From: an uncultured Fastidiosipila sp.
GTDB lineage: Bacteria > Bacillota > Clostridia > Saccharofermentanales > Fastidiosipilaceae
Assembly (NCBI GenBank): GCA_964479695.1
Contig: CAYZSO010000003.1
Span: 60,567-92,566, forward strand
Direction: 5' to 3'
DNA: 32,000 nucleotides
The number at the start of each line of letters is the position of its first letter. The stretch's first letter is position 1. The notes under the pieces are model-generated. The model was not told the origin of the DNA. It made no database searches and saw only the letters and a list, made by a program, of their open reading frames with translations. Shown here piece by piece: positions 2,676 through 32,000 of this stretch. The translations under genes were made by a program, and so were the position numbers.

Positions 2676-3344
2676 ATGAACTATTTGGCCATCATAGGTG
2701 ACATGATCAAATCCCGCGAGATCAAGAATCGTAAGCAAGAGCAAGAGCGGATAGAAGAAGTCCTCAGTAAAATCAATCAGCAATATCAGGAGATCATAGT
2801 TTCCAGGATCACGTTGACGCTTGGGGATGAATTTCAGGCGCTTCTAAAGATAGACCACCGAGTCATGCAGATGTTGGATGACCTCGAAACTCAATTGGAA
2901 TTGCCCTATAGGTTGGGGATCGGCTTTGGCCAAATTCGGACGAAGATCAGACCGGAAATCAGTATCGGAGCCGATGGGGAGGCCTTCTGGCACGCGAGGG
3001 AAGCGATTGAGAATATCCATGAGAACGATTGGGGTGGCTATGCCAAAGTCCGGTTTATGGGACTGGGGGAATTGCAGGACCAAACGATCAACGCACTCTT
3101 TCGCACGACTGATACAATAAAACAGAGTTGGACGACGACGAGGAGGGAAACGTTTGCGGAACTTCTGGCGCAAGGGATTTACAGCGTGACCTTTGACCAG
3201 AAGCGTTTTGCGGAATCAATCGGAATCTCTCAGAGTAGTTTGAGTAAGAGGCTTTCCGGTGGGGCGATCAAGATTTATTTGGACGCCCGCCAAACCATAG
3301 GTGAATTATTGGAGGCTTGGTGTGACACAACTGTCGACTCTTAG
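2676..3344 (+). CDS. SatD-family protein: N-terminal cyclase-like region with C-terminal HTH-like region
   Basis: Strong SD GGGAGG. N-terminus AIIGDMIKSRE and LTLGDEFQALL resemble the SatD family of the Streptococcus mutans sat operon. The C-terminus (FAESIGISQSSLSKRL) looks like an HTH. Confidence 0.75.
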   Translation: MNYLAIIGDMIKSREIKNRKQEQERIEEVLSKINQQYQEIIVSRITLTLGDEFQALLKIDHRVMQMLDDLETQLELPYRLGIGFGQIRTKIRPEISIGADGEAFWHAREAIENIHENDWGGYAKVRFMGLGELQDQTINALFRTTDTIKQSWTTTRRETFAELLAQGIYSVTFDQKRFAESIGISQSSLSKRLSGGAIKIYLDARQTIGELLEAWCDTTVDS

Positions 3345-4056
3345 TTTGCTGGTGTTGATCGCTCATTTCCTGGGCGATTACCACTTTCAGAGCGAAAGCA
3401 TGGTGCGGGCGAAACAGCGATCACTGCGAGGACTCCTTCGGCACATAGGTGTTCAGGGGCTTTTGTTGCTGCCACTGCTGCTCTTTGCCGGCATTTCGCG
3501 TGATCTCACTTGGGTCTATTTGGGGTTAACGATTCTTGCCGGCCATTTCGTGCTGGATTTTCTGAAACTTGTTCTTGATCGGCAGAAGCAGAAATCCGCA
3601 GGGCGTTACGAGGCGGTGATTTACGTGATTGATCAAGTCTTGCATGTTACGCTGATTCTTGTTCTGAGTACGTGGGTTTTCCCCGTGTTTCCGCCCGCGT
3701 GGTTGCAGCGGGATTGGCTTACGTGGGGCCTCCTTGCTGTGCTGATTACGAAGCCGGCGAATGTTACGTTCAAAATTCTTTTTCGCAAGTACCGCTTCTT
3801 CGAGATCCCGAATCCGCAAAAGGCTGTCAGTGAAACGCAGGCTGGTGCGGGTGCTTTGATCGGCAATTTGGAGCGGCTTTTGTCAGCGATTTTCCTGGGT
3901 ACAGGCCAGGTTGCCGCGATCGGCTTGATCTATACGGCCAAGTCGATTGCCCGCTTCAAGAAGATTGAGGAGAACCAGAGTTTCGCGGAATATTACCTCA
4001 TTGGCACATTGTATAGCATCCTTTATGTTACGGTCTTCTTCTATTTGATCGTTTGA
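3322..4056 (+). CDS. DUF3307-type polytopic membrane protein (usual SatD partner)
   Basis: HFLGDYHFQS motif and several hydrophobic segments. I place the start at GTG 3322, 6 nt after GGAGG (3311-3315), overlapping satD by 23 nt. The track start is 3301. Confidence 0.75.
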   Translation: MTQLSTLSLLVLIAHFLGDYHFQSESMVRAKQRSLRGLLRHIGVQGLLLLPLLLFAGISRDLTWVYLGLTILAGHFVLDFLKLVLDRQKQKSAGRYEAVIYVIDQVLHVTLILVLSTWVFPVFPPAWLQRDWLTWGLLAVLITKPANVTFKILFRKYRFFEIPNPQKAVSETQAGAGALIGNLERLLSAIFLGTGQVAAIGLIYTAKSIARFKKIEENQSFAEYYLIGTLYSILYVTVFFYLIV

Positions 4057-4091
4057 CCCAGGGCAGCCCCCAGCCACGGTTCCACCCTTAT

Positions 4092-4107
4092 TTTGGCCAA
4101 AGCCGCC
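4092..4107. repeat. copy of the iterated palindrome (TTTGGCCAAAGCCGCC)
   Basis: Intergenic. Shares GGCCAAAGCCGCC with 11766-11778 and 27550-27562. Confidence 0.8.
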
Positions 4108-4192
4108 CGCAACACAGGTCACTTCTTCGGTCCAGGCAAAGGCCTATAATCAGGGTCAGGCATGAAACCGTCAAAGGAAAGGAGATTTAAAT

Positions 4193-4756
4193 ATGACACG
4201 AAGTAATCCGGAAAATAATTCCAAAAGAAATATCCTCATTGTTATTGATATGCAAAACGACTTTGTGAGCGGCAGTTTGGGCACAGCAGAAGCACAGGCG
4301 ATTGTGCCTCGCGTGGTTTCGGAAATTGGTGGTGCTTATTCAGAGGTCCTTTACACGCAGGACACGCATGAAAAAGACTATTTGACAACGGAAGAAGGCA
4401 AACACTTACCTGTGATCCACTGCCAAAATGGGACAGAAGGCTGGGCGATCGAAAGTGGGGTGGGGGTGGCTTTGGCCGAGAGAAAAGCCAAGGGATTTAC
4501 GAAACCGACCTTCGGCTCACTTGACTTGGCGGAAGAACTTGTCCGAATGAACCAGGAAAAGCCGCTGGATCAGCTGACCTTCATTGGCCTCTGCACTGAT
4601 ATCTGTGTGATTTCGAATGCACTTGTGGCGAAGGCACACCTGCCGAATCTCCCGATACGCGTGATTGCTGACTGCTGTGCGGGTGTGACTCCGGAGAGCC
4701 ACGAAACGGCGCTAAGGGCGATGGAAGCGTGCCAAATTGAGATTATCCGAGAGTGA
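4193..4756 (+). CDS. pncA: isochorismatase-fold cysteine hydrolase, nicotinamidase-like
   Basis: VIDMQNDF (catalytic Asp), QDTHEKD...LPVIHC (metal-site-like) and GLCTDICV (catalytic Cys). SD AAGGAG. Confidence 0.7.
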   Translation: MTRSNPENNSKRNILIVIDMQNDFVSGSLGTAEAQAIVPRVVSEIGGAYSEVLYTQDTHEKDYLTTEEGKHLPVIHCQNGTEGWAIESGVGVALAERKAKGFTKPTFGSLDLAEELVRMNQEKPLDQLTFIGLCTDICVISNALVAKAHLPNLPIRVIADCCAGVTPESHETALRAMEACQIEIIRE

Positions 4757-4795
4757 AAATAGAGTTAAATAATAGAGTTAAAAAATAGAGTCAAT
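4757..4795. repeat. ATAGAGTTA x3 degenerate tandem repeat directly after the stop codon
   Basis: atagagtta at 4759-4767 and 4772-4780, atagagtca at 4785-4793. The gene end GAGAGTGAAAA resembles the unit. Confidence 0.75.
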
Positions 4796-6685: not shown

Positions 6686-7314
6686 TGCAGAGTTCACCAC
6701 GCCAGTTTATTTTGGCTTTGCTTGCGGCATTGGCAGTCTTTTTCGGGACCTGGTCCGGTTTACAGTGGCCGGTTCTGCTTGCGGCTGGTCTCGCAGTGGG
6801 TACGTACGTCGGGGTTTATTTGCTGGCTAAGCCCAAGCTTCGCATTGGCCACATCCGCGTGGATTCTTTGCCGGACGGCGATGAATTGAAACGTTTGCTT
6901 CTGGAGGCCAAAGACGATATGGACGCAATTAATCGGGCCAGCAAGCAAATCACCAATCTGCCGATCCGCCAGCAGAGCGAGCAACTTTATCAAACAGGCA
7001 TCCGCATTCTGGAGTATCTCGAGAAAAATCCCGATCGAATCCCGGCCGCAAGGCGCTTCCTAGGTTACTACCTGAATACTGCACGCGATATTTTGGAAAA
7101 ATACTTACCGTTTCAGAACTCCGGTCTGCGAACGGACGAAGTGAAACGTGTGACGCAAGCGACGGAGAGAGCGATGCCGATCTTGAATCAGGCTTTTGAA
7201 ACGCAATTTACGAATTTGATGCAAAACGACATTATGGATATTGAATCCGATATTAAGGTTCTGGAGATGACCTTGCAATCCGAAGGGGGCATACATGGCT
7301 CTGAGCAGAAGTAA
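6685..7314 (+). CDS. XpaC-like (5-bromo-4-chloroindolyl phosphate hydrolysis family) membrane protein
   Basis: 209 aa with two N-terminal TM helices and a helical C-terminal domain. The start overlaps the upstream stop (TGATG). Adjacency to TelA mirrors the xpaC-yaaN pairing of Bacillus subtilis. Confidence 0.6.
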   Translation: MQSSPRQFILALLAALAVFFGTWSGLQWPVLLAAGLAVGTYVGVYLLAKPKLRIGHIRVDSLPDGDELKRLLLEAKDDMDAINRASKQITNLPIRQQSEQLYQTGIRILEYLEKNPDRIPAARRFLGYYLNTARDILEKYLPFQNSGLRTDEVKRVTQATERAMPILNQAFETQFTNLMQNDIMDIESDIKVLEMTLQSEGGIHGSEQK

Positions 7315-8377: not shown

Positions 8378-8460
8378 GAATTTACACCGCAGAATAAGAA
8401 TTAACCGCAGAACAAGAATTAAACCGCAGAATAAGCATTTACACCACCAAACAAGAATTC
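8372..8460. repeat. 18-19-nt degenerate tandem repeat ACCGCAGAA(T/C)AAGAATT(A)A, ~4 units
   Basis: Units begin at 8386, 8404, 8423 and 8441. The first GAATAAGAATT includes the TAA stop of the upstream gene. Confidence 0.8.
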
Positions 8461-8478: not shown

Positions 8479-9621
8479 ATGGACGGAAAGATCACATTGG
8501 AGGCTTTGGCCAAACAAAAAGAGCTGAGCCCGGACGTAAGTCGCGTAGCAGAAACCAGCGAGGAACTTGCCCAAGCAGCTCCGAAAGAAATTACCCCGGA
8601 AATGCGTAAGCAAGTTGACCAGATCAAGAATGGCATCAATTTGTTGGACTCGACCGGCCTTATTACCTATGGTGCCGGAGCGCAGCGGAACTTGACTGCC
8701 TTTTCGGATAATATTTTACAGAAGGTTCGCTCGAAGGACGCGGGTTATGTGGGGGAGACCTTATCCAATCTGATGGTGACCGTAAAGAGTCTTGAGGTCG
8801 ACAAATTGGGCAACGACAACGGGTTCCTGGCGAAACTCGGTATCGGCAACACGATGAAGAAATTCCTAGCCCGTTATGACACCGTCGAAATGCAAATTGA
8901 TAAGATCGAGGCGGAGCTGGACAAGGCGCAGACGATGCTCTTGAAGGATATTGCGACCTTCGACCAACTCTACGACAAGAACCTCGAGTATTTCAAGGAA
9001 CTGGATACCTATATTGTAGCCGGTGACGAAACCATCAAGGAAGCGCGTGAAGTGACTCTGCCTTCTCTCCGGGCCGAAGCCGCCGCCTCCGACAATGAGA
9101 TGGCCCCGCAACTGGTGCAGGATTTTGAGAATACACTGGATCGTTTTGAGCGGAAGGTGCATGATCTCAAACTCTCGAAGACGATTGCCATTCAAACGGC
9201 TCCACAGGTTCGCCTGATACAGAATAACGACAAACTGCTTGTGGATAAGATCCAAACATCAGTATTGCACACGATCCCTTTGTGGAAAAATCAGATTGTG
9301 ATTGCCCTAGGCCTGCAGAATCAGCAAAAAGTGCTGGAAATGCAGAAGCAAATTTCGGATACAACGAATGACTTGCTGCTGAAGAATTCCGAGATGCTGA
9401 AGCAAAATACGACCGGTGTTGCCCGTGAGACGCAACGCGGTATTGTTGAAATTGAGACCCTGAAGAAAGTCAATCAGGATCTGGTGGAGACGATCGAAGA
9501 GACCATGAAGATCAACGCGGACGGCAGGGCTGCGCGCCAAGCCGCCGAATTGGAGCTGATCGAGATTGAAAGTGATCTCAAAGAGACGATGCTCGCCAAT
9601 ATGACACCACAGGGAAACTAA
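8479..9621 (+). CDS. telA: TelA-family toxic anion resistance protein
   Basis: 380 aa, all-helical, with the TelA/YaaN-like block YGAGAQRNLTAFSDNILQKVRSKDAGYVGETLSNLM. SD GGAGG. Confidence 0.8.
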   Translation: MDGKITLEALAKQKELSPDVSRVAETSEELAQAAPKEITPEMRKQVDQIKNGINLLDSTGLITYGAGAQRNLTAFSDNILQKVRSKDAGYVGETLSNLMVTVKSLEVDKLGNDNGFLAKLGIGNTMKKFLARYDTVEMQIDKIEAELDKAQTMLLKDIATFDQLYDKNLEYFKELDTYIVAGDETIKEAREVTLPSLRAEAAASDNEMAPQLVQDFENTLDRFERKVHDLKLSKTIAIQTAPQVRLIQNNDKLLVDKIQTSVLHTIPLWKNQIVIALGLQNQQKVLEMQKQISDTTNDLLLKNSEMLKQNTTGVARETQRGIVEIETLKKVNQDLVETIEETMKINADGRAARQAAELELIEIESDLKETMLANMTPQGN

Positions 9622-11247: not shown

Positions 11248-12117
11248 ATGAGTGAGCAAATAGGCATCAACTTGTGGAATTGGGTGAATCGTTCCGCTGA
11301 AATTACACCGGACCTCATTAGGCACGTGGCGAGCCTGGGCTTCAAGGTGATCGAGATCCCGCTGACTGACCCACTGATCGATCCGGGGGTGGAGGGGGCG
11401 GCTTTGGCCAGAACTATTGAGGCGCAAGACCTGCGCGTGAGTACTTGCCTCTCACCGCCACAAGGCTACGATATCGGAGCCACAGATCCCGAAGAACGCG
11501 CGCGAGCGATTGCGTACCTTGAACATGCGATTACCACGTCCGCCGAACTCCACGCTGAGGTCATGGTGGGCCCATTCTTCGCATCGGGTGGCAAGCGGAT
11601 CTGGCTTGAGAAGGACGAACGAGAAGAGCTCTTGGCCGTTGTGGCAGGGAATCTGGCCCAGCTCGCGGAATTCGCTCAGAGCCAGGGGGTCAGGCTCGCC
11701 ATTGAGCCGGTCAACCGCTACCGCACGAGCATCGTGAATACCGCAGAGCAAGCACTCGCTCTCGTGGCCAAAGCCGCCCACCCCAACCTCGGGATCCTCT
11801 ACGACACGTATCAAGCGAACATCGAGGAGACGCACGTGACTCAAGGACTTCGGAAAATCCTCGATGAAGGCAAACTTTTCCATTTCCATGCCTGTGAGAA
11901 TAACCGCAACATTCCGGGCGAAGGGCAAATTCACTGGCCTGAAATTCTGGGTCTCTTGGAGCAAAAGAAGTATGAGGGCTTCCTCACGATGGAACTCTTC
12001 AAGCCCGGAGGCCTAGATGCTGGCTGGGCGTATGAGGATCGTACCCGCGACGAGATTGCAAGGCAAGGTCTGGAGAATCTTCGCAGTCTGCTGGCTGACG
12101 TCGTTATGAGCTCATGA
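11248..12117 (+). CDS. sugar (phosphate) isomerase/epimerase, xylose-isomerase-like TIM barrel
   Basis: Family-typical pattern: IEIPL, E..., LAIEPVNR, ILYDTYQANIEE, FHACEN and MELF. Start moved to ATG 11248 behind GAGGAG. Confidence 0.8.
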   Translation: MSEQIGINLWNWVNRSAEITPDLIRHVASLGFKVIEIPLTDPLIDPGVEGAALARTIEAQDLRVSTCLSPPQGYDIGATDPEERARAIAYLEHAITTSAELHAEVMVGPFFASGGKRIWLEKDEREELLAVVAGNLAQLAEFAQSQGVRLAIEPVNRYRTSIVNTAEQALALVAKAAHPNLGILYDTYQANIEETHVTQGLRKILDEGKLFHFHACENNRNIPGEGQIHWPEILGLLEQKKYEGFLTMELFKPGGLDAGWAYEDRTRDEIARQGLENLRSLLADVVMSS

Positions 12118-12276: not shown

Positions 12277-14202
12277 GTGAGAATCGATGATGATTCCCGT
12301 GTCATGGATCTCTACAACCATCCGGTTGGCTATGACGTGATCAATAAGATTTTGCTGCAGCTAAACCGCCCGCAGAACTTGGTGAAAAACCCCTTAGTAA
12401 AGCATGTGAAGCTGCGGACCATACGTAAATGGACGGCAAAAGTCATCCCACAAGATCTCTGGGAGACCGCGTACTGGCTCCTGAACAATCAACCCGACGA
12501 GCCTTCTTCCGGCACCTTGAATCCGGCGAAACCTTGGTGGAAGGAAGCGGTGTTCTACCAGATTTACCCTCGTTCCTTTGCGGACTCCAATGGTGATGGA
12601 GTAGGGGATCTTCAAGGGATCATTGGTAAATTAGATTATTTGCAAGCGCTCGGTGTGGATGCGCTCTGGCTTTCGCCGATTTATGACTCTCCGAATGATG
12701 ACAACGGCTACGATATCCGAAATTATCATAAAATCATGGAAGAAATGGGGACCATGGACGATTTCGACCAGCTCCTCCTGGAAGTGCACAAACGTGGCAT
12801 GCGGCTCATTATGGATCTGGTAGTGAACCATACTTCCGATGAACATGCTTGGTTTCAGCGTGCCATAGAAGATCCGGAAGGCCCTTACGGTCAATACTAT
12901 TTCCTGCGTAAAGGGCAAGAAGAGCAAGCACCGAACAATTGGGTCTCTTTTTTCAGCGGCTCCGCGTGGCGCTGGTTTCCCGAGGCCAAACGCTGGGGTC
13001 TTCACCTCTTTTCATCGAAGCAAATGGATCTTAATTGGGATCATCCCCCGGTTCGGAAGGAGATTGCGGAGATGGTTCGTTGGTGGTTGGCCAAAGGCGT
13101 CGACGGCTTCCGTCTCGATGTGATCAACTACATCTCCAAACGGGAAGGTCTGCCTGACGGGAACAACCTAATCGGCGAATTAATGCAGTATTACGGGATT
13201 GAGAATTACTATTTCGGTCCGAATCTTCACCGTTATTTACGTGAACTTCGGCGTGAGGCCTTCGAACCGTATCAAGCTTTCTCTGTGGGCGAGACACCGG
13301 GCATCGGCATCAAGATGGGACAGCTCCTCTCCGGCGAGGACAGGCGCGAATTGGATCTGGTCTTCAATTTTGACCATCTGGAGACGCCTGGCCACGTGCG
13401 TTTCAATCAATATACCTACGATCCGAACTATTTGAAAAAATATTACATGAAGTATCATACGATCCTAACCAATAATGACTGGATGTCCGTTTTTTGGGAC
13501 AACCATGATAACCCACGTATGCTGTCAAAAATCAATTCCGATCCCGCCTGGCGCGAGCGTCTGGCGAAGCTTCTTTTGATTTTACAACTGACGATGAAAG
13601 GCACGCCATTTTTATTCCAAGGCCAGGAGCTCGGAGCTGTGAATCAGAAATTCACCAATATTACGGAGCTTCGCGATGTTGAGTCACTGAATTTTTATGC
13701 GGAACGAGTGGCGGAGGACGGTCCCGAACGAGCTTGGCAAACGGTGCTTGCCGGTACCCGTGATCACGCCAGAGTTCCCATGCGCTGGAGCGCTGAAGGG
13801 GGCTTCTCCGAGGCAGAGCCATGGCTACCATGGCCTTCTGAGGATCCTGGCTGGAGTGTGGCGGAGCAAGAAGAAGACCTTAACTCCGTCCTTCACTTTG
13901 CGAGAAAGCTCCTGGCCATTCGCAAAGAAAATGAAGGGCTCCGTTTCGGCCAAATTCGCTTCATTGCGGGGAATAAACACAATTACTTTGCCTATTTTCG
14001 CGAAGAGAAGGGCTCAAGACTTTTCATCGAGATGAACCTCGGCAGTGAGATTCTGAAACGTCCTTTCACCTCCAGGAAGTACCAACTCCTACTCAGTAAT
14101 GTGGATCACGGCAAAAAAACCAGAATGGACCGCATGAGTGAATACATGGAACCCTATGAGGCGGCTCTGTACCTAGTACAGAAGCGAAACTCAGCGGAAT
14201 AA
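12277..14202 (+). CDS. GH13 alpha-glucosidase / oligo-1,6-glucosidase family enzyme with ~85-aa N-terminal extension
   Basis: WWKEAVFYQIYPRSF, DLVVNHTS, GFRLDVINYI and FWDNHDNPR. GTG start behind GAAGGAGG. Confidence 0.9.
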   Translation: MRIDDDSRVMDLYNHPVGYDVINKILLQLNRPQNLVKNPLVKHVKLRTIRKWTAKVIPQDLWETAYWLLNNQPDEPSSGTLNPAKPWWKEAVFYQIYPRSFADSNGDGVGDLQGIIGKLDYLQALGVDALWLSPIYDSPNDDNGYDIRNYHKIMEEMGTMDDFDQLLLEVHKRGMRLIMDLVVNHTSDEHAWFQRAIEDPEGPYGQYYFLRKGQEEQAPNNWVSFFSGSAWRWFPEAKRWGLHLFSSKQMDLNWDHPPVRKEIAEMVRWWLAKGVDGFRLDVINYISKREGLPDGNNLIGELMQYYGIENYYFGPNLHRYLRELRREAFEPYQAFSVGETPGIGIKMGQLLSGEDRRELDLVFNFDHLETPGHVRFNQYTYDPNYLKKYYMKYHTILTNNDWMSVFWDNHDNPRMLSKINSDPAWRERLAKLLLILQLTMKGTPFLFQGQELGAVNQKFTNITELRDVESLNFYAERVAEDGPERAWQTVLAGTRDHARVPMRWSAEGGFSEAEPWLPWPSEDPGWSVAEQEEDLNSVLHFARKLLAIRKENEGLRFGQIRFIAGNKHNYFAYFREEKGSRLFIEMNLGSEILKRPFTSRKYQLLLSNVDHGKKTRMDRMSEYMEPYEAALYLVQKRNSAE

Positions 14203-17761: not shown

Positions 17762-18733
17762 TTACTTTACATAATAGAAATCATCAGCAGGAACCGTACC
17801 CCCGACCAGTGCCGGATTACTCTCTGCCAAGACTTCAAGATAGGGAGCTAACATCGTTTTGAGTTCACTTCCGGAAACCATGGTAATGCCGCTCTGCGGA
17901 ATGGCTTTTTCCGCAACGGCCGCGCCGATGATCCCTTGCTCATCAATGATTTTGGCAGCGTCTGCCGGGTTTTCGTTGACCCATTTGGCCGAGGCTTGGT
18001 ATTCCTCAAGGAACTTGTCGAACCAAGCCTTGTTATTCTGAACGAAATCCTTGCGGACGACGAGTACGCCAGTGACTACCTGGGAATCCGCGCCCATATA
18101 TTGCTTCCAAAGATCGTCGACGTTTAATTGCGCCTTAATCTTGTCGTTCTTCATTGTGACTGAGGAGAGGAATGGTTCTTGCAGCAGGGCGATCGCACCT
18201 TCCTCTGCCTGGAGGAGAGCGGCGACCTCAGTAGCCTCTGTGCGGAACTCAATGGTGACATCCGTACCGATGGTGAGCCCGGCTTTGGCCAATAAATTCT
18301 GCAAAATGACGTCCGGAGTTGCCCCCTTGCCTGTTGCGTAAACGGTCTTGCCTCGGAGGTCTTCCAGACTGTTCAGCGGAGCGTTATTGGTGGCGAAGTA
18401 GAGCACGTTCAAGACGTTGATGGCAGCGACTTGGATCTTGCCTTCACTCTTGTTGTAGACGGTGGCTGCGAGGTTCGCCGGGATGCAGGCGATGTCTAAT
18501 TCTCCCTTGATCAAGCCTGTGGCCACTTCATCCGGCATCGTCTGGATGTTATAGGAGATCGCAGGATCCGCCTTCGGGTCGAGGTTCGACGTGTACTGCG
18601 CGAGCCCCATGGCTGTGGGACCTTTCATGGCGGCGATTTCCACGGATTCATTGGGTTTCACTGCGGTTTGACAGGCGGTCAAAGTGAGCGCGAGAACAGC
18701 AGCCAGAAAAGGACGAATAAACGTTTTCTTCAT
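17762..18733 (-). CDS. ABC transporter substrate-binding lipoprotein (NMT1/THI5, SsuA/TauA-like)
   Basis: Lipobox LTLTAC-Q. 323-aa PBP-like protein located 5 nt upstream of the permease-ATPase gene. Confidence 0.8.
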   Translation of the reverse strand: MKKTFIRPFLAAVLALTLTACQTAVKPNESVEIAAMKGPTAMGLAQYTSNLDPKADPAISYNIQTMPDEVATGLIKGELDIACIPANLAATVYNKSEGKIQVAAINVLNVLYFATNNAPLNSLEDLRGKTVYATGKGATPDVILQNLLAKAGLTIGTDVTIEFRTEATEVAALLQAEEGAIALLQEPFLSSVTMKNDKIKAQLNVDDLWKQYMGADSQVVTGVLVVRKDFVQNNKAWFDKFLEEYQASAKWVNENPADAAKIIDEQGIIGAAVAEKAIPQSGITMVSGSELKTMLAPYLEVLAESNPALVGGTVPADDFYYVK

Positions 18734-19117: not shown

Positions 19118-20200
19118 ATGAGCAGAGTGTATAACTTTAGCGCAGGCCCGGCAGTCTTGCCGGAAGAAGTCCTGAGAGAAGCCGCAGCAGAAATGCTGGA
19201 TTTCGAGGGCAGCGGAATGTCCGTGATGGAGATGAGTCATCGATCTTCCACGTTCGCGAACATTATCCAGACTGCGGAGCAAGACCTGAGGGATCTGGCC
19301 CAAATCCCCGATACCTATGAAGTGTTGTTCTTGCAGGGCGGCGCTTCTCAACAATTTGCAGCCATCCCCCAGAATTTGATGGTGAACCGCAAGGCGGATT
19401 ACATCCTCACGGGAGCTTGGGCGAAGAAGGCGGCCAAAGAAGCCAAAATCTACGGCGATGTCAAGATTCTCGCATCCAGCGAAGAGGCTACATTCACCTA
19501 TATTCCTGACGTATCCGACCTCGATGTAAGAGAGGATGCCGATTATGTGTATATTTGTGAAAACAACACGATCTACGGCACAAAGTATCACGAACTGCCG
19601 AATACCAAGGGCAAAGATCTGGTATCCGATTCGTCCTCATGTTTCTTATCCGAACCCTTCGATATTACGCAGTACGGGCTGATGTTTGCCGGGGCTCAGA
19701 AAAATATCGGGCCGGCGGGCGTCGTGGTCGTGATCATCCGCAAGGATCTTATCCGTGATGACGTTCTGCCTTACACACCCACCATGTTGAAGTACAAAAC
19801 CCAGGCGGACGAGCATTCACTCTACAACACGCCACCAGCTTACGGCATTTATATTTGCGGCAAGGTCTTCAAGTGGTTGAAGAAATTAGGCGGCCTCGAG
19901 GCGATGCAGAAAATTAATCAAGAGAAAGCCAAACTTCTCTATGATTATTTGGATCAGAGCCAGTTGTTTAAAGGAACGGTTGTGGCCAAAGACCGCTCGC
20001 TCATGAATGTCCCGTTTATTACAGGTGATGATGCTTTAGACAAGAAATTTGTGGCTGAGGCAAAGGCCGTCGGCTTAGAACAACTGAAAGGTCACCGCAC
20101 GGTTGGCGGCATGAGAGCCTCAATCTACAATGCGATGCCTTTGGCCGGGGTAGAAAAACTCGTCACTTTCATGGCTCAATTTGAAAAGGAGAACACCTAA
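19118..20200 (+). CDS. serC: 3-phosphoserine aminotransferase
   Basis: MSRVYNFSAGPAVLPEEVL...MEMSHRS is the SerC N-terminus. 360 aa. SD AAGGAGG. Confidence 0.93.
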   Translation: MSRVYNFSAGPAVLPEEVLREAAAEMLDFEGSGMSVMEMSHRSSTFANIIQTAEQDLRDLAQIPDTYEVLFLQGGASQQFAAIPQNLMVNRKADYILTGAWAKKAAKEAKIYGDVKILASSEEATFTYIPDVSDLDVREDADYVYICENNTIYGTKYHELPNTKGKDLVSDSSSCFLSEPFDITQYGLMFAGAQKNIGPAGVVVVIIRKDLIRDDVLPYTPTMLKYKTQADEHSLYNTPPAYGIYICGKVFKWLKKLGGLEAMQKINQEKAKLLYDYLDQSQLFKGTVVAKDRSLMNVPFITGDDALDKKFVAEAKAVGLEQLKGHRTVGGMRASIYNAMPLAGVEKLVTFMAQFEKENT

Positions 20201-21375: not shown

Positions 21376-22179
21376 ATGACGCACAAGACCGGACTTCGTT
21401 TTGGCGTGCCTTTCCTACTGGAAACGGCAATCGTTGAGGAAGCCTCTGACCTGGCTCGTGAACTGGGACTGCACTTCGTTGAGCTCAACACGAATTTTCC
21501 GCAGTGTCTGGTGCCTCGGCTGGATTCAGGAACACTGCGACAAATTGCCGCGGAGACCGGTCTGTTTTTTACTTTGCATTTGGATGATGCCTTGAATTTT
21601 GCTGATTTCAACCCATGGGTCCGTGAAGCTTCTGTTCAAACGGTACTGGAGGCTATTTCTCTGGCCAGAGAAGCTCAGATGCCTGTGATTAATCTGCATT
21701 TCCCCAAGGGCAATGTAGTGACTTTGCCGGACGGAAAACATTATATCTTTGAAAATTTCACGGAAGAGTTTACCCGGGTCTTACTGGATTTCAGGCGGCG
21801 GGTTGAAGAGGCAACGGGTGACGCCGACCTCAAGATCTGCATCGAAAATACCGATGGTTGGGCCCCCTACGAACGGCAGGCGATCGAATTACTCTTGGAG
21901 AGTCCCGTCTTTGGCCTGACGTTTGATATCGGACATAACCATGCGGTGGATGACTTGGATTTGCCCTTTATAGAAACCCATAGAGACCGTTTGCACCATA
22001 TGCACGCCCATGATGGGTGGGGACAAACGAACCACCAAGCGCTGGGAGAAGGGGAGATTCCACTCGACGACCGTCTGGATCTGGCGAAAGAGGTCGGGGC
22101 CACGGTGGTGCTGGAGACGAAGACGAAGGCGGCTTTGGCCGAATCCGTTCAATGGCTGAAACGAAGGGGCTACTTGTAG
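21376..22179 (+). CDS. xylose-isomerase-like TIM-barrel protein (sugar phosphate isomerase/epimerase family)
   Basis: VELN, LHLDD, ICIENT, FDIGHNH, HMHAHD and GEGEIP pattern. The ATG follows the serA TAA directly. Confidence 0.8.
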   Translation: MTHKTGLRFGVPFLLETAIVEEASDLARELGLHFVELNTNFPQCLVPRLDSGTLRQIAAETGLFFTLHLDDALNFADFNPWVREASVQTVLEAISLAREAQMPVINLHFPKGNVVTLPDGKHYIFENFTEEFTRVLLDFRRRVEEATGDADLKICIENTDGWAPYERQAIELLLESPVFGLTFDIGHNHAVDDLDLPFIETHRDRLHHMHAHDGWGQTNHQALGEGEIPLDDRLDLAKEVGATVVLETKTKAALAESVQWLKRRGYL

Positions 22180-22256: not shown

Positions 22257-23387
22257 CTATTTCAGCATCGTCGCGGAATTCAGCAGCAAGGTGTTGTACA
22301 AGAAGAGCACATCCTGATCGGTGAAGGTCACGTAATTGCCTACCAGGTCACTTGCGATGTAGCGCGTGTCGATGAGGGTAATCTTGCGGTAACCTTCGAG
22401 TAATAGGGGAGTCACACTACTTCCGAAAGAATCGCGGAAAATGATGAGTTCGCGGGATTCTTGGGCCAAAGGATTGTCGATTACGAGCAGCGGAGAAGCC
22501 CCGGAAAGGTAGACATCATAAGGGTCGCGGCTGTCTAGCTTGGGCAGGTCGTAAACGGGCGTGGTTTGGCCGGTTTCATAATTGAAAACCGTGGCCGCTT
22601 CCGTGGTCTCATTGGTCAGATAGCGAATCTGATCCGGCTTGAGCGGCAGAGCGGATTGCCCTCTGTAGACTCCGTAAAAGGGCGTTGCTGCTTCCTTCAC
22701 GTGGTACGTGCCGGATAATGAGTCGGCAATCCCTAAGCGATTTGCGAGCACTTGGGCGACGTCCCGGAGGCTCTCTTGCTTCCAGTGGATGTCCGAAGCG
22801 TAATAATCTTCAATAGCGAGTGCCCCTGTTATATCGATATAGGTAGCGTATTCGGTATTGTCTTGGATTAGGCTAAAGAGGCGCTCATAGTCTAGCGAGG
22901 GATAAGCTTGCTGATACCCTAAGTAGTAGTTCTTATCAGGGATGACGGAAATAAAAACGTTCAGATCCTGTGCTTCAAGGTATTTCTCATAGAGGTAGCG
23001 GATACGTGTCGTTGCCAGGAGAATTTCATTTTCTTTCAGCGGATACTCTTGTTTTGCGGCGAAACCGTCGAGTACATAGATTTCGTTGCTGTCGAGCTGA
23101 CGTAAGCCGTAGAATCTCGTGTATGCCATAAGCTGGCGGAAGGGGAAGCGCCAGGGAAATTGATCCTGGACATAGGTTTCAAAATCTTTCATATATGTGC
23201 CGTTCGCCACGGTTTCAAGTTTGAGTTCAGGTGCTTGGGCGAGTTTCCGCCTTTCACTCTCCGACGTTGCCTCAGACGTTTTAAACCAGGCCACGACGCA
23301 CAAAATGAGCCAGATGGAGCAGATGGAGAGGACGATGATGAAGTTGGTTTTCTTTTGATTGGCTTGTGTTTGCTCGTTTGCTTGCAT
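22257..23387 (-). CDS. DHHW-family (AlgX/AlgJ-like) extracytoplasmic acyl-transfer partner protein
   Basis: N-terminal TM anchor and an SDIHW motif. Lies 12 nt downstream of the MBOAT gene with SD AAGGAG. Confidence 0.7.
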   Translation of the reverse strand: MQANEQTQANQKKTNFIIVLSICSIWLILCVVAWFKTSEATSESERRKLAQAPELKLETVANGTYMKDFETYVQDQFPWRFPFRQLMAYTRFYGLRQLDSNEIYVLDGFAAKQEYPLKENEILLATTRIRYLYEKYLEAQDLNVFISVIPDKNYYLGYQQAYPSLDYERLFSLIQDNTEYATYIDITGALAIEDYYASDIHWKQESLRDVAQVLANRLGIADSLSGTYHVKEAATPFYGVYRGQSALPLKPDQIRYLTNETTEAATVFNYETGQTTPVYDLPKLDSRDPYDVYLSGASPLLVIDNPLAQESRELIIFRDSFGSSVTPLLLEGYRKITLIDTRYIASDLVGNYVTFTDQDVLFLYNTLLLNSATMLK

Positions 23388-23399
23388 CGGTGCGCTCCT

Positions 23400-24779
23400 T
23401 TAGAAACGGAAGTAGAGAAAGGGGTTGAACGACGAATCGACCAAGTACGCCGTTACGACGAGTAGGAGAGAAATATCCATTACAGGTTCTGCGATGGTGA
23501 GAATTTTGGCGGCCAAAGGCGCCTTCTGCAAACGTTCGATCGTGCTTTTCGGCCATCGGGTACTCCCGATGATCGCGAGCAAGAAGATCACGGTGTAACT
23601 TCGCAGGTAATAGATCGCCTCTGTATCCGCAAGGGGAGCGCCTCTGCCGCCAAACATGGTTACCATTCTCTCACCTGCAATTCTGAGGCCCAGAGCATCG
23701 AACAGGACGAAACTCAACACAACAACCAGGAGCACGTAGACGTGGGTGAGAGGAGCCGGTATGCGGCTTAGCCATTTGCCCAGCCAAAATTTCTCGGCCA
23801 GCAAGAAGAAGGCAAAGAGGAGTCCCCAGAAAATAAAGTTCCAAGCCGCTCCATGCCACAGACCCGTCAGAAACCAGACCAAAAGAATGTTCAGCACCCA
23901 GCGACCTTGCGAGACGCGGTTTCCGCCCAACGGAATATAGAGGTAGTCGCGAAACCAGGTGCTTAAAGACATATGCCAGCGCCGCCAGAATTCTGTAATA
24001 CTTCGGGCAATAAAAGGATAATTGAAGTTTTCCAGGAAATTGAAACCTAAGAGTTTACCCATCCCGATGGCCATGTCGCTGTACCCTGAGAAATCGAAAT
24101 AGATTTGCAGAGTGAACGCTGCCGCGTAGAGCCAATGAAAAAGCACGGAAGGGTTTTCGGCGTTCTGAAAATGTTGGCACAGCTCACCCAGCGAATTGGC
24201 GAGGATGACTTTCTTCCCCAGCCCAAGGAGGAAGCGCCTCAGACCCAGACGCATCCTTGCGACACTGTGCTCTCGCCGGACCAGCTCCGCGGCGACATCC
24301 ACATAGCGAACGATCGGGCCGGCGATGAGCTGTGGGAAGAGCGAGAGATAGGTCGCCAGCGTGAAAATATTTTTCTGTGCCGGTGTTTCGCCTCGGTAGA
24401 CATCGAAGGTATAACTCATGATCTGGAAGGTGTAGAAGCTCACACCGATGGGCAAAACGATGTTTTGAAGCGGGAAGTGAGTACCCAGGATGAAATTGAC
24501 ATTTTCGATGAGAAAATCCGTGTATTTGAAGTAGCCCAGAAGGAGCAATGAAAAAACAGTGGCTAGGATGAGCCAGAGCTTGGCGCGGCTTTGGCCGAAG
24601 TCTCTCTCGATCAGTAAGCCGCACACATAGTGAACGGCAATCGAAAGCAACATATAAACGACGTTAATCGGCTCACCCCAACCGTAAAAAATCAGCGAGG
24701 CAATCAGGAGTACCGGATTCTTCGCTCGAAACGGAACCAGGAAATAAATGAGCAGGACAAGCGGGAAGAAATAGTACAA
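23400..24779 (-). CDS. MBOAT-family O-acyltransferase (AlgI/DltB-like); true start possibly at 24803
   Basis: Polytopic. FYGWGEP, FSGYSDMAIG, FWRRWHMSLSTWFRDYLYIPLGG (catalytic His) and GLWHGA motifs. Confidence 0.9.
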   Translation of the reverse strand: MYYFFPLVLLIYFLVPFRAKNPVLLIASLIFYGWGEPINVVYMLLSIAVHYVCGLLIERDFGQSRAKLWLILATVFSLLLLGYFKYTDFLIENVNFILGTHFPLQNIVLPIGVSFYTFQIMSYTFDVYRGETPAQKNIFTLATYLSLFPQLIAGPIVRYVDVAAELVRREHSVARMRLGLRRFLLGLGKKVILANSLGELCQHFQNAENPSVLFHWLYAAAFTLQIYFDFSGYSDMAIGMGKLLGFNFLENFNYPFIARSITEFWRRWHMSLSTWFRDYLYIPLGGNRVSQGRWVLNILLVWFLTGLWHGAAWNFIFWGLLFAFFLLAEKFWLGKWLSRIPAPLTHVYVLLVVVLSFVLFDALGLRIAGERMVTMFGGRGAPLADTEAIYYLRSYTVIFLLAIIGSTRWPKSTIERLQKAPLAAKILTIAEPVMDISLLLVVTAYLVDSSFNPFLYFRF

Positions 24780-24879: not shown

Positions 24880-25599
24880 TTATTTCTTCAGTGCCAGATC
24901 TGGCTTAGCACCACGGACTTGTTCGAAGGCGGCGACCATGTCTTGCGAGGTGACCGTATCACTCAATGAGGAAGAAACCATGAATAACATCACGATGTCG
25001 CCTTGTGTGACGATCTGCAAGTCATCGGCCTCCACACAGATCCACTTCACCGGATCGATTCCGGCCAGCATCTCTTCCGCCACAAGCTTCGCGTCTGCCG
25101 GATCTTTCACCTGCACGAGAACCAATGAATATGCCTGCGAACTCATCATCGCTTCGGATACCGCAACATCCTTAACGAGACTGCTGTCTGTTAAACCGGT
25201 GTAGTACTGTAAATTGTCTTGATCCTGCAGATCAACCGTGATCGATCCCAGCATGAGCTCCGGCTGCTTGATCTGATAGAGTTCAGAAATTAGGCCAAAG
25301 AGCGCCGATTCAGCTACAGTCGTCCCGGGCAGAGGCTCTTCCGATGTGCCGGATTCTGAATTCTCCGGTGTTTCGGACTCCGTCTCTGCCGGTGTTTCGG
25401 ACTCCGTCGCTGCCGGTGTTTCGGACTCTGAAAAGGTAGGGGCCTCAGACTCTGTCGGAGCAGGAGTTTCGGATGACTGACCCGTCTGTTCGGTTGGGGT
25501 GGATGATTCAAGGCTTCCGCCACCTGTTTGTGCCGTTGTTTGACAAGCACTCACGGATAATAGGACGGCGGCAAGCGCGATCGCAAAGAATTTTCTCAT
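24880..25599 (-). CDS. lipoprotein with S/T/E/P repeat linker (DUF4358-like)
   Basis: Lipobox LSVSAC-Q. ESETPA repeats are followed by a globular C-domain. First gene of the MBOAT/DHHW string. Confidence 0.7.
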   Translation of the reverse strand: MRKFFAIALAAVLLSVSACQTTAQTGGGSLESSTPTEQTGQSSETPAPTESEAPTFSESETPAATESETPAETESETPENSESGTSEEPLPGTTVAESALFGLISELYQIKQPELMLGSITVDLQDQDNLQYYTGLTDSSLVKDVAVSEAMMSSQAYSLVLVQVKDPADAKLVAEEMLAGIDPVKWICVEADDLQIVTQGDIVMLFMVSSSLSDTVTSQDMVAAFEQVRGAKPDLALKK

Positions 25600-27529: not shown

Positions 27530-27545
27530 CCTCATCTGAGGGCTT

Positions 27546-27562
27546 CTTTGGCCAAAGCCGCC
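27546..27562. repeat. copy of the iterated palindrome (CTTTGGCCAAAGCCGCC)
   Basis: Intergenic, between the glsB-like stop and the terminator. Confidence 0.8.
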
Positions 27563-27573: not shown

Positions 27574-27607
27574 AAACAGCCGTTTGCTAACTCGCAAACG
27601 GCTGTTT
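27574..27607. terminator. bidirectional rho-independent terminator
   Basis: 14-bp stem AAACAGCCGTTTGC with GCAAACGGCTGTTT, loop TAACTC. Lies between convergent genes. Confidence 0.75.
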
Positions 27608-28347: not shown

Positions 28348-28369
28348 GGCGGCTTTGGCCAAAGTCGCC
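28348..28369. repeat. fullest copy of the iterated palindrome GGCGGCTTTGGCCAAAGTCGCC
   Basis: 22 nt with 9 pairable positions per arm around GGCC (one G-T). Lies in the divergent spacer upstream of gdhA. Confidence 0.85.
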
Positions 28370-28491: not shown

Positions 28492-29891
<1,400 letters not shown>

Positions 29892-30040: not shown

Positions 30041-31192
30041 TTACAGATGCAAATCCAGGTCTCCGTACTTGATCCAGCCCTTCTTCCTCATGGGGATCGC
30101 AATGAGCCAGGTCAGTACAGCCGGCAACACAATGGCGATCAAGGCTAAGCCGAGCCAGTCAAACCAACCTGGCGTAATTGCCTGAGCACCGAATTCTCTA
30201 GCCCTCTCACTAGGCTCCATCCAGCCAGTGATGACCCCAATTGGCCCCACTAAGCCGGAAGTTCCCATTCCGGAGGCCAAAGGCGGGCCATTCATCTCTA
30301 TTTTGAAAAACATGGTTGCCAAAGGACCGGTAATCGCAGAAGCGAGCGTCGGAGGAATCCATACGCGGGGGTTCTTCAGGATATTGGGCATCTGAAGCAT
30401 CGAAGTACCGAGGCCTTGCGCCACGAGACCACCGCCTTTATTCTCCGGATAGGACAACACGGCGAAACCAACCATTTGCGCACAGCATCCGGCCAGTGCA
30501 GCGCCGCCCGCAAGGCCTACCAGGCCGATCCCGGCACAAATGGCCGCGGAAGAAATCGGCAGCGTCAGCGCCACCCCAATCACCACCGATACAACGACGC
30601 CCATAACAAAGGGCTGCTGTAAGGTTGCCCAATTGACCAGATCCCCGACAGACAATGCGGCTTGGCCAATCGCCGGAGCCCACCAAGCAGACAGGCCAAC
30701 ACCCACAAATAAAGTAACAAAGGGCGTGACGATAATGTCAACCGGTGTCTCTTTGTAAACGGCTTTACCACATTCCGCCGCAAAAATCGTCACGACCAGA
30801 ACCGCAATCGGCCCCCCGGCACCGCCCAAAGTATTCGCAGCAAGACCCACTCCAGCCAAAGAAAACAGGACCAAGCCTTTGGCCTTCAACGCATAGCCGA
30901 TCGCGACAGCCATGGCGGGACCTGTTGCCTGCATCGCGAAACTGCCGATCAGGAGCAGTAATTCCGTAAACTGGCTTTGGCCAAAAGCATTCTGAAGCTG
31001 TTGCCCCAACGTCTGAATAATCGTCCCAATCAAGAGCGACGAGAAAAGCCCCAGCGCCATCGCACCCATGGCTTCGATTCCGTACCGTTGAAACGAAAAC
31101 TCAATATCTTTGCGCTTCAGAAAGGCCTTGAACCCTCCCTTTTTCCCGCTACCCGGATCAGGGCTGACCAATTGATTCTCATAATCTGACAT
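30041..31192 (-). CDS. PTS EIIC-like membrane permease (PTS_EIIC_2-type)
   Basis: FLKRKDIEFSFQRYGIEAMGAMALGLFSSLLIGTI followed by a polytopic Gly/Ala-rich body. Start set at MSDYEN (31192) behind GAGGG. The track ORF extends to 31405. Confidence 0.7.
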   Translation of the reverse strand: MSDYENQLVSPDPGSGKKGGFKAFLKRKDIEFSFQRYGIEAMGAMALGLFSSLLIGTIIQTLGQQLQNAFGQSQFTELLLLIGSFAMQATGPAMAVAIGYALKAKGLVLFSLAGVGLAANTLGGAGGPIAVLVVTIFAAECGKAVYKETPVDIIVTPFVTLFVGVGLSAWWAPAIGQAALSVGDLVNWATLQQPFVMGVVVSVVIGVALTLPISSAAICAGIGLVGLAGGAALAGCCAQMVGFAVLSYPENKGGGLVAQGLGTSMLQMPNILKNPRVWIPPTLASAITGPLATMFFKIEMNGPPLASGMGTSGLVGPIGVITGWMEPSERAREFGAQAITPGWFDWLGLALIAIVLPAVLTWLIAIPMRKKGWIKYGDLDLHL

Positions 31193-31256
31193 AGAAATAC
31201 CCTCATGTTTCATTCTGTCTGTTTGACGATCTGTGTCATGCGTCGTTAGAAGTATA

Positions 31257-31281
31257 GCGGAAATTTCCCGGAAATTTCCGC
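31257..31281. promoter_or_regulatory. 25-bp perfect palindrome GC-GGAAATTTCC-C-GGAAATTTCC-GC (candidate operator)
   Basis: 12-nt arms around a central C. Each arm contains the self-complementary GGAAATTTCC. It abuts a minus-strand TATACT (31251-31256) upstream of the EIIC-like gene. Confidence 0.6.
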
Positions 31282-31357
31282 TTGCAAAGAGAATTGAGTG
31301 AAGCCGCAAGTGAGGGTCATAATTAGGGAACGGAAGGGAACGGAAATGAAGAATTTT

Positions 31358-31386
31358 TTGAAGCCAATTTCGGTCTATGGTAAAAT
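31358..31386 (+). promoter_or_regulatory. candidate sigma-A promoter of the ECF S-component gene
   Basis: TTGAAG (31358-31363), 17-nt spacer, extended -10 TGgTAAAAT (31378-31386). Confidence 0.5.
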
Positions 31387-31472
31387 CAAACACGATAAAG
31401 CTCATGAAGAGCTAAGCCTCCGGGCAGAGGATTCAGAAGAGTCTTCATAATCAAATTTTCGGAGGATTCACC

Positions 31473-32000
31473 ATGAATCGTATCAACTTGCGCCGCCTCA
31501 CACTGACGGCAGTCTGTGTGGCTTTGGGTGTCATTTTTCCACAACTTTTCCACGCCATCCCCAGAAGTGGAATGATCCTTTTGCCGATGCACTTGCCGGT
31601 TTTGCTGTGTGGCTTGCTGGCCGGCCCCGCCTGGGGTCTGATCTGCGGCGCCATAACGCCTCTCTTGTCCAACCTGGTTTCGGGGATGCCGCCTGCAGGG
31701 CCAATCCTCTATTCCATGATTTTCGAATTGGCGGTTTACGGCCTGCTGGCAGGACTCGCCTTCCAACTCATCCGCACGAAGTCTCTCGTTCTGGATCTCT
31801 ATTTGTCTCTGATCATTGCCATGTTAGGTGGACGAATTATTTATGGTCTGGCCAACGGTCTGATCTTCTCCGCCGGTACGGGGTACGGCCTTGAGGCTTG
31901 GTTCACCGCATCGTTTGTCACGGGACTTCCGGGGATCGCTATGCAGCTGGTTCTGATTCCGCTGCTGTATGGGGCTTTGGCCAAAGCCAAACTCACCATC
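31473..32000 (+). CDS. ECF transporter S component (substrate unknown), 3'-partial at window end
   Basis: My own translation: MNRINLRRLTLTAVCVALGVIFPQLFH...LLPMHLPVLLCGLLAGPAWG... The frame is open to the window end. SD GGAGG at 31461-31465. Not in the ORF track because no stop is present. Confidence 0.75.
   Translation, partial: MNRINLRRLTLTAVCVALGVIFPQLFHAIPRSGMILLPMHLPVLLCGLLAGPAWGLICGAITPLLSNLVSGMPPAGPILYSMIFELAVYGLLAGLAFQLIRTKSLVLDLYLSLIIAMLGGRIIYGLANGLIFSAGTGYGLEAWFTASFVTGLPGIAMQLVLIPLLYGALAKAKLTI

Follow-up and report, generated by a model that had tools for sequence, protein, structure and literature searches.

A clade-specific, hyper-iterated DNA word with a GGCC-centered partial palindrome in an anaerobic Bacillota lineage

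Genome-wide hyper-iterated DNA words are, to our knowledge, known from very few lineages (the Neisseriaceae, the Pasteurellaceae, and the cyanobacteria), and each known case has taught something about the way in which genomes are molded by DNA exchange, repair, or chromosome structure. For the DNA uptake sequences (DUS) of the Neisseriaceae (GCCGTCTGAA; 12-mer, ATGCCGTCTGAA) and the uptake signal sequences (USS) of the Pasteurellaceae (AAGTGCGGT/ACAAGCGGT), molecular drive by biased uptake is the established mechanism, and these words are typically spacer enriched, often as inverted-repeat terminators. The highly iterated palindrome HIP1 (GCGATCGC) of cyanobacteria occurs at 0.3 to 2.7 copies per kb in genes and spacers, has symmetric extensions such as GGCGATCGCC, spreads by substitution, and is conserved above control palindromes (PMC5861425); its one-off variants deviate mainly at the outer positions (PMC4390886), and its function is still debated, the mechanism of DUS and USS having recently been proposed for it as well (bioRxiv 10.64898/2026.06.24.733823). 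Here, we describe the octamer CTTTGGCC in a 32-kb bacterial chromosome segment of ~50% G+C from an uncultured Fastidiosipila sp. (GCA_964479695.1, contig CAYZSO010000003.1, positions 60,567 to 92,566; this whole stretch is the “window,” to which all coordinates refer). The octamer is a clade-specific, genome-dispersed DNA word present at ~0.6 to 0.9 copies per kb.

On its two strands, the window holds 29 exact matches to CTTTGGCC (15 plus and 14 minus, the opposite strand reading GGCCAAAG), a number to be set against 1.50 ± 1.28 (maximum, 6) in dinucleotide-preserving shuffles of the window and 1.9 under an order-3 Markov model. Under the same model, GGCTTTGGCC occurs 15 times versus 0.17 expected, and the CTTTGGCC family is the top over-represented family among 8-, 9-, and 10-mers alike. 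The 13-mer GGCGGCTTTGGCC, with at most one mismatch allowed, has 12 matches (6 exact) versus 0.09 expected. When overlapping inverted pairs are merged, the 29 copies collapse into 26 loci, approximately 1 per 1.16 kb, and the density of the octamer itself is ~0.9 per kb. An earlier note, which had counted by eye, arrived at ~28 copies (15 and 13 by orientation) with ~1 expected, very near the exact figures, and the positions it gave for the long form (GGCGGCTTTGGCC at 11397, 22128, and 28348 on the plus strand and at 4095, 11766, and 27550 on the minus strand; GCGGCTTTGGCC at 24585) are correct. The count against a Markov expectation that it proposed was made on ~68 kb of sequence from the clade, drawn from two chromosomal neighborhoods, so that any wider density is an extrapolation; on this material, the motif lies strongly above expectation both in the window and in the enriched relatives described below.

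Where do these copies sit, and is it the DNA or the encoded peptide that is maintained? Twenty-four copies fall within 20 unrelated genes and 5 fall in spacers. By locus, 23 of 26 are coding and 3 are intergenic, compared with ~11% noncoding sequence, so spacers are not over-represented. The coding copies occupy both coding strands and 4 of the 6 frames, and when they are read along the coding strand, 14 of them are CTTTGGCC and 10 are GGCCAAAG. The frame xCT-TTG-GCC (x-Leu-Ala) carries 11 copies, xxG-GCC-AAA-G (Ala-Lys) carries 8, TTT-GGC (Phe-Gly) carries 3, and GGC-CAA (Gly-Gln) carries 2; the Leu-Trp-Pro and x-Pro-Lys frames carry none. This distribution shows that CTTTGGCC sits in the frames of least cost. 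Uptake sequences in coding regions likewise have biased frames and bend tripeptide frequencies (Findlay and Redfield, PMC2817400), and the frame use of CTTTGGCC resembles that of USS and DUS.

The concentration of 19 of the 24 coding copies in the x-Leu-Ala and Ala-Lys frames is also what lends some appeal to a far simpler idea, namely, that the word is a by-product of protein or translation bias (a favored peptide, a codon pair, or a paralogous domain) or of a small mobile element. However, a synonymous-codon shuffle that keeps proteins and codon usage (1,000 runs) yields 2.75 ± 1.6 copies (maximum, 9) versus the 24 observed, and the copies are spread over both coding strands, spacers, and 20 unrelated gene families. 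The tripeptide ALA is spelled GCTTTGGCC in 6 of 16 cases and PLA is spelled CCTTTGGCC in 4 of 7, each versus ~1.5 to 1.7% expected. In addition, the codons used for these peptides differ in relatives, and no site shows indels or flanking repeats.

The last two points come from a comparison of orthologous sites in three syntenic relatives: one from a different sample with ~97% nucleotide identity (L083/L147) and two more distant ones with ~70% nucleotide identity in orthologous genes (L142, GCA_012514965.1, and L149, GCA_964499555.1). The close relative keeps 17 of 19 comparable sites, and its two differences are one substitution each, a synonymous change of AAA to AAG and a change of GGCC to GACC. 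At sites where only one genome has the motif in the comparisons with L142 and L149, the other either comes close to the motif or encodes an unchanged peptide with different codons, as in the orthologous pairs TCTTTGGCC versus TCTTTAGCC, CCTTTGGCC versus CCTCTAGCC, and CCTTTGGCC versus CCGCTCGCC. Neither indels nor flanking repeats were found at orthologous sites between the window and L083, L142, or L149. This shows that copies arise and decay via point substitution, mostly synonymous, and not via insertion.

With substitutions only and 23 of 26 loci coding, a mobile element of the miniature inverted-repeat transposable element (MITE) or repetitive extragenic palindromic (REP) type is excluded as the source of the copies. 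Repeats of the REP/bacterial interspersed mosaic element (BIME), enterobacterial repetitive intergenic consensus (ERIC), and MITE types share with CTTTGGCC a dispersed distribution and partial palindromy, but they are at least 30 bp long and are intergenic insertions, whereas the present word is 8 to 13 bp, lies for the most part within conserved genes, in frame, and is without indels. Frames, codon shuffle, and orthologous substitutions together refute the by-product explanation in both its protein and its mobile-element forms, and we give it virtually no credence. The statement in the earlier note that selection or spread acts on DNA and not on a peptide agrees with the unrelated genes and frames, the codon shuffle, and the spelling of ALA, and the peptides quoted there (GFGQ, EALAK, and GALAKAK) are correct. 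Two findings that it had named as fatal to its claim are excluded: a single peptide in a single frame by the 20 unrelated genes and 4 of 6 frames, and a multicopy mobile element by the substitution-only differences found in the orthologous-site comparison that it had suggested.

How far does the word extend phylogenetically? All three syntenic relatives are enriched: 10 kb of the ~97% identical relative outside the window (L147:10772-20771) has 6 copies versus 0.39 expected (0.6 per kb), L142 (SerC, 81% amino acid identity) has 10 copies in 11 kb versus 0.7 (0.9 per kb), and L149 (P5CR, 78%) has 9 copies in 14.5 kb versus 1.6 (0.6 per kb). Five more distant relatives are not. Among these, L145 (from SRR3944650; alpha-glucosidase, 65% amino acid identity) has no copy in 15.6 kb versus 0.42 expected; L146 (from GCA_050309435.1; alpha-glucosidase, 62%) has 4 in 20.7 kb versus 0.9 and is classed as not enriched; and L082, L143, and L144, in which synteny differs from that of the window (SerC, ~74% for L082), have 1 to 2 copies per 17 to 21 kb versus 0.2 to 1.3. 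A glutamate dehydrogenase scan of species-representative genomes returned no motif-enriched locus among 80, the best matches being 59 to 66% identical and taxonomically scattered. The motif marks a narrow genus- or family-level clade, and even within it, the window lineage has about twice the motif density of L149 in orthologous genes (12 versus 6 sites). When metagenomes were scanned with GCGGCTTTGGCCAAAGNCGC, 57 contigs were recovered, most of them high-GC and unrelated; they carried only the palindrome used as the seed, and this lineage contributed none of them. One unrelated metagenome contig, L141 (JACCDW010170769.1; 8.7 kb; GC, 0.61), has 8 CTTTGGCC matches, more than the other contigs of >5 kb in that scan, which is weakly suggestive.

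Across these evolutionary distances, the motif is also kept. For 3 of 6 window sites, L142 has the identical octamer where the two sequences align, versus 6.3% of all 8-mers (P = 0.004), and where the peptide is conserved, the motif is kept in 3 of 4 cases versus 14% for control 8-mers. Relative to L149, 4 of 12 sites are identical versus 7.6% of all 8-mers (P = 0.01), which brings the two comparisons together to 7 of 18 sites versus 6 to 8% for control 8-mers. These numbers, small but consistent, show that motif sites are retained far longer than neutral sequence. Conservation reaches beyond the octamer: within ±25 bp of the 17 loci shared with L083, divergence is 1.0% versus 2.7% overall (2.7-fold lower; permutation P = 0.0036), and 80 other GGCC sites diverge at the background rate. 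Single nucleotide differences number 2 in 475 bases on the G-rich upstream side and 7 in 475 downstream. The low divergence of the flanks would be explained either by a functional unit that reaches into them, by local gene conversion, or by the location of the sites in locally constrained sequence or codons.

What, then, is the unit? Oriented on CTTTGGCC, the 29 copies have the consensus gGgcGG-CTTTGGCC-aaa(g), with G at position -2 in 24 of 29, C at position -3 in 17 of 29, and A at positions +1 to +3 in 17 to 19 of 29; the 5' side is G-rich over ~14 nucleotides, and the asymmetric 5' extension GGCGG is strongly enriched. One-mismatch neighbors of the octamer total 53 versus ~39 expected (~1.4-fold), with no positional pattern in this small sample. 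The unit has a sharp core and weaker flanks. The over-represented octamer is not itself palindromic; its ideal form, with 5' GGCGG and a 3' A-run, is shown to be one half of the palindrome GGCGGCTTTGGCCAAAGCCGCC, and palindromes are enriched in the window (TTTGGCCAAA, 7 sites versus 0.13 expected; TTGGCCAA, 11 sites versus ~1.5). In an analysis of the arms that pooled the window with three related loci, a second, TTT-type arm is present in 13 of 50 loci with one CTTT arm versus 3.4% at other GGCC sites (Fisher P = 1.5e-7), and 74% of loci are one-armed. Both CTTT arms are present in only 3 of 26 window loci. The unit is mainly asymmetric, (GGCGG)CTTTGGCC(AAA), an 8- to 13-mer with a real two-fold tendency. 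Because it is realized by such a minority of loci, the palindromic “full form” of the earlier note is an idealization: near-palindromes are indeed present at 27546-27562, 28348-28369, and 31973-31988, but the exact 22-mer occurs nowhere in the window or the three related loci.

This partial symmetry is the point at which HIP1 and the alternative HIPs, our second system of comparison, become most relevant. In a HIP1-like process as modeled by Elhai, an orphan methyltransferase acting at GGCC or TGGCCA, together with methyl-directed or very-short-patch-type repair, would convert near-matches to matches. The GGCC center is a classic methyltransferase target, the two arms are positively associated, the split between coding and noncoding sequence is even, and the one GGCC-to-GACC loss in L083, a single event, is the change expected from deamination of an inner methylated C. 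Moreover, a GGCC-cored alternative HIP, CAGGCCTG, replaces HIP1 in Synechococcus PCC 6312 (bioRxiv 10.64898/2026.06.24.733823; PMC4390886), and CTTTGGCC may share with the HIPs the character of a hyper-abundant, short, GC-cored, palindrome-type word. It also resembles them in its density, in occurring in spacers as well as in genes, in having symmetric extensions, in spreading by substitution, and in being better conserved than control octamers (PMC5861425). In contrast to HIP1, however, three-quarters of the loci are one-armed, and the inner GGCC alone is slightly under-represented in the window (159 versus 189 expected; 0.84), with a CTTT arm at only 26 of those 159 sites. One-off variants are barely enriched and lack the concentration at outer positions seen in HIP1 (PMC4390886). 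The enriched GGCGG extension is far beyond the reach of any type II methyltransferase site, the host is not a cyanobacterium, and no associated methyltransferase is known for CTTTGGCC: the ~68 kb read contains no DNA methyltransferase gene, its sole methyltransferase being TrmB-like (Methyltransf_4). On this balance, we regard a HIP1-like process as an unlikely driver, albeit the main rival to the reading favored below.

The same two-fold tendency could be accommodated by a binding site for an abundant, clade-specific chromosome organizer, i.e., a nucleoid-associated protein or a ParB/Noc-like dimer whose ideal site would be TTTGGCCAAA with extended arms, many weak half-sites being kept. The A/T run flanking a GC core can be likened to the Noc-binding site ATTTCCCGGGAAAT of Bacillus subtilis; sites and flanks are conserved; and locus spacing is somewhat more even than random (coefficient of variation, 0.75 versus 0.97; P = 0.08), a trend only. 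Nevertheless, the majority of copies amount to half-sites, the preference for the exact 8-mer over its one-off variants is of a sharpness unusual for nucleoid proteins, and no candidate protein was found. Known sites of the nucleoid, ParB, or Noc type number from tens to a few hundred per genome, not ~1 per kb. We consider an organizer site improbable.

The orientation of the copies is balanced, at 15/14 for all copies, 12/11 when palindromic loci are set aside, and 6/6 among long forms; a skew of 75% would give ≤12 of 23 with a P value of ~0.02. Whichever replichore it belongs to, a window of 32 kb probably includes neither the origin nor the terminus. This balance bears on the polar signals of recombination and segregation, namely, Chi for AddAB/RecBCD and the FtsK-orienting polar sequences (KOPS). 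A conserved, exact 8-mer that has a G-rich flank and is found in excess in core genes does look like such a signal, but because orientation is unskewed, the word is not Chi- or KOPS-like. Its density of ~1 copy per kb also exceeds that of Chi sites, which are sparser, and we think a polar signal very improbable. The strand-skew and spacing checks that had been suggested for the word thus come to no orientation skew and, for even spacing, the trend already given.

Based on the sharp asymmetric core with its flanks, the density, the orientation neutrality, the frames, the dialect-like range, and the lack of enrichment of GGCC alone, we tentatively favor, as a best guess, a self-DNA tag accumulating via biased DNA uptake or recombination. 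In this model, the driving force would be a sequence-specific step in DNA exchange among members of the clade, in which a receptor or processing protein would prefer DNA with (GGCGG)CTTTGGCC during uptake or recombination. Because of that preference, a mutation that creates a copy would be transmitted more often (molecular drive). Copies would then pile up to ~1 per kb where coding permits, and recently acquired DNA would be without them. We speculate that overlapping inverted copies, which share the self-complementary GGCC center, would be the most compact arrangement with one copy per strand.

DUS and USS are the closest known systems. With them, CTTTGGCC shares a density of ~1 copy per kb, an asymmetric core that is exact and bordered by weaker sequence, equal orientations, a mostly genic location in a biased subset of frames, an imprint on tripeptide and codon usage, gain by point mutation, a family-level “dialect” distribution, and the absence of any copy from a possible island at 1-2900 (P, ~0.07). 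It differs in its sequence, in its Clostridia-type Bacillota lineage, in its self-complementary GGCC center with a partial second arm, and in being neither spacer enriched nor an inverted-repeat terminator; uptake bias is the property that defines DUS and USS. The analogy with HIP1 and DUS drawn in the earlier note stands for density, DNA-level placement, and conservation and falls for spacer enrichment and for a HIP1-like pattern of one-off variants.

Several points weigh against a self-DNA tag. The ~68 kb of clade sequence read encodes no com or pil genes and no sequence-specific receptor, a part played by ComP in Neisseria, and we know of no case in which sequence-specific DNA uptake has been shown in the Bacillota. 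The two-fold symmetric tendency (26% versus 3.4%) suits the site of a dimeric protein or a methyltransferase better than that of a monomeric receptor, and the loci neither concentrate in spacers (3 of 26) nor form terminators, unlike typical DUS and USS. The conservation of the ±25-bp flanks may reflect copies in constrained parts of genes, the absence of the motif from 1-2900 lacks significance, and all data derive from two chromosomal neighborhoods. What probability is not claimed by the readings above we leave to a mechanism not considered here.

If a self-DNA tag is the right reading, could (GGCGG)CTTTGGCC serve as a species “password” in natural transformation that is sequence specific or in some other motif-dependent DNA exchange? 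It might then be the first self-recognition tag of the uptake-sequence type outside the Proteobacteria, a possibility that we hold to be doubtful. As part of the same doubtful reading, the tag may have been acquired recently enough for the receptor to be sought by comparing sister lineages with and without the motif. More generally, motif-rich and motif-poor relatives share synteny, and the driver should for that reason be identifiable by comparative genomics as a receptor, methyltransferase, or repair gene that accompanies the motif. Might HIP-type palindromes and uptake sequences be manifestations of a single phenomenon? CTTTGGCC bears on this question because it has features of both, the asymmetric core and the GGCC-centered partial palindrome. 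HIP1 has recently been linked to transformation in preprints (bioRxiv 10.64898/2026.06.24.733823), so that uptake-type and HIP-type processes may converge.

Hyper-iterated oligonucleotides spanning whole genomes are known as a class; what appears new is this sequence, this phylum, and the combination of an asymmetric core with a GGCC-centered partial palindrome. The literature on CTTTGGCC itself yielded only primers, and nothing relevant was found on iterated palindromes or uptake sequences in Clostridia or Firmicutes, which accords with the remark in the earlier note that no such element was known for this kind of genome: the searchable literature holds no prior description. The word adds a young case of narrow phylogenetic range in an anaerobic Bacillota lineage. 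In practical terms, it is a compact marker for binning contigs of the clade and an obvious element to add to DNA meant to transform these organisms. The individual loci are collected in Table 1.

Table 1. Loci of the CTTTGGCC word in the window, with strand, reading, and state in relatives
Feature	Position	Strand	Reading and remarks
SatD-family gene copy	2924..2931	+	Read G-F-G-Q
Long form GGCGGCTTTGGCC	4095..4107	-	Intergenic, downstream of DUF3307 gene
Isochorismatase-family gene copy	4470..4477	+	V-A-L-A-E; G-rich 5' flank
Halogen_Hydrol-family gene copy, antisense	6906..6913	-	Sense strand GGCCAAAG, E-A-K-D
telA copy	8504..8511	+	E-A-L-A-K
AP_endonuc_2 gene a, long form GGCGGCTTTGGCC	11397..11409	+	A-A-L-A-R; G-rich 5' flank; conserved in L083
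AP_endonuc_2 gene a, long form, opposite orientation	11766..11778	-	V-A-K-A-A; conserved in L083
Alpha-amylase-family gene copy	13089..13096	-	L-A-K-G; orthologous position kept in L142, ~68% nucleotide identity
Fused ABC permease/ATPase gene copy	16497..16504	-	R-A-L-A-I; conserved in L142
NMT1-type substrate-binding protein gene copy	18283..18290	+	L-A-K-A; conserved in L142
serC copy	19432..19439	-	A-A-K-E; absent in L142
serC copy	19984..19991	-	V-A-K-D; L083 differs by one synonymous substitution, AAA to AAG
serC copy	20139..20146	+	M-P-L-A-G; L142 has same peptide, other codons (CCGCTCGCC)
AP_endonuc_2 gene b copy	21909..21916	+	V-F-G-L; conserved in L149
AP_endonuc_2 gene b, long form GGCGGCTTTGGCC	22128..22140	+	A-A-L-A-E; conserved in L149, including GGCGG flank
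DHHW-family gene copy	22464..22471	-	N-P-L-A-Q
MBOAT gene, long form with 1 mismatch	23511..23523	-	A-P-L-A-A
MBOAT gene, antisense GCGGCTTTGGCC	24585..24596	+	Sense strand F-G-Q-S
239-aa hypothetical gene copy	25293..25300	-	L-F-G-L; L083 differs, GGCC to GACC
Two overlapping inverted copies GGGCTTCTTTGGCCAAAGCCGCC	27541..27562	.	Between convergent genes; adjoins terminator hairpin (probable) at 27576-27607, distinct from hairpin
Near-perfect 22-mer palindrome GGCGGCTTTGGCCAAAGTCGCC	28348..28369	.	Between divergent FMN-reductase and gdh genes
gdh copy	29155..29162	+	S-L-A-R; L149 has TCTTTAGCC, synonymous
PTS EIIC_2 gene copy	30275..30282	-	P-P-L-A-S; L149 has CCTCTAGCC, synonymous
PTS EIIC_2 gene copy, antisense	30877..30884	+	K-A-K-G
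PTS EIIC_2 gene, near-palindromic GGCTTTGGCCAAAAGC, antisense	30973..30988	+	A-F-G-Q-S
ECF S-component gene, 16-mer palindrome GGCTTTGGCCAAAGCC	31973..31988	.	G-A-L-A-K-A-K; conserved in L149

The window encodes routine housekeeping and transport functions of an anaerobe. Among its genes are telA with VWA and XpaC-like neighbors, serC-serA, gdh, MBOAT/DHHW, two TIM-barrel genes of the AP_endonuc_2 type, and those for an [FeFe]-hydrogenase, a GH13 alpha-glucosidase, a DEAD-box helicase, and components of ATP-binding cassette (ABC), energy-coupling factor (ECF), and phosphotransferase system (PTS) transporters. Exact window proteins were found only in metagenome-derived assemblies, and the nearest named homologues, 63 to 81% identical, belong to metagenome-assembled genomes labeled Clostridiaceae, Eubacteriales, or Fastidiosipila. 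Exact-protein matches to P0006 and P0008 lie on unrelated contigs with Lachnospiraceae-like synteny. Rfam and tRNA scans of the window returned one tRNA-Ser and no other Rfam family, and hence no RNA family that accounts for the motif copies; a search of a phage collection gave no match.

The intergenic motif palindromes were considered as transcription terminators and rejected: the palindrome at 28348-28369 lies between divergent genes, and near the other there is a separate hairpin. This clean hairpin at 27576-27607, AAACAGCCGTTTGC-TAACTC-GCAAACGGCTGTTT, is flanked by the convergent Transgly_assoc and FMN-reductase genes and is probably a bidirectional terminator, separate from the adjoining motif palindrome.

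A second candidate hyper-iterated word, GGCTTAGC, occurs 6 times versus 0.45 expected and was dropped, as the excess is not significant after correction for all 8-mers. Its copies lie at 6826, 7700, 23765, 24902, 30144, and 31411, three of them as GGCTTAGCC, and it resembles the main motif (GGCTT..GCC).

The left end of the window, 1-2676, has a G+C content of 0.43 to 0.46 lies beside the tRNA-Ser (383-474), and contains minus-strand helix-turn-helix (Xre-type) and Zn-ribbon genes; this low-GC segment may be an integrated element, an island, or recently acquired DNA. Pentamer tandem arrays, TGATC ×14 and TCTGG ×15, occupy 230-330, just ahead of the tRNA-Ser. At 2515-2660, ~145 nucleotides consist almost only of C and A, with three copies of AAAACAACAC followed by units of the ACCCA/ACCCAA type. 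This stretch, which may be an unusual CA-rich leader, directly precedes the ribosome-binding site of the gene of the SatD family that starts at 2676. Short tandem repeats with periods of 9 to 38 in 2 to 4 copies, unrelated to the motif, are common in spacers (e.g., 8372-8459, 14286-14358, and 25365-25428).

At 4955-9621, genes for an SBP_bac_11+VWA fusion and an XpaC-like (Halogen_Hydrol) protein are clustered with telA and with a gene whose 360-aa product matches no Pfam family; the cluster resembles a module for resistance to toxic anions or stress in which one member is uncharacterized. Finally, the longest open reading frame of the DEAD-box helicase gene (9618-11345, minus strand) encodes 575 aa versus a gene call of 457 aa in relatives and overlaps the start of an AP_endonuc_2 gene, and that of the PTS EIIC_2 gene (30041-31405, minus strand) encodes 454 aa versus 383 aa in relatives; the true starts of both genes are probably further downstream.

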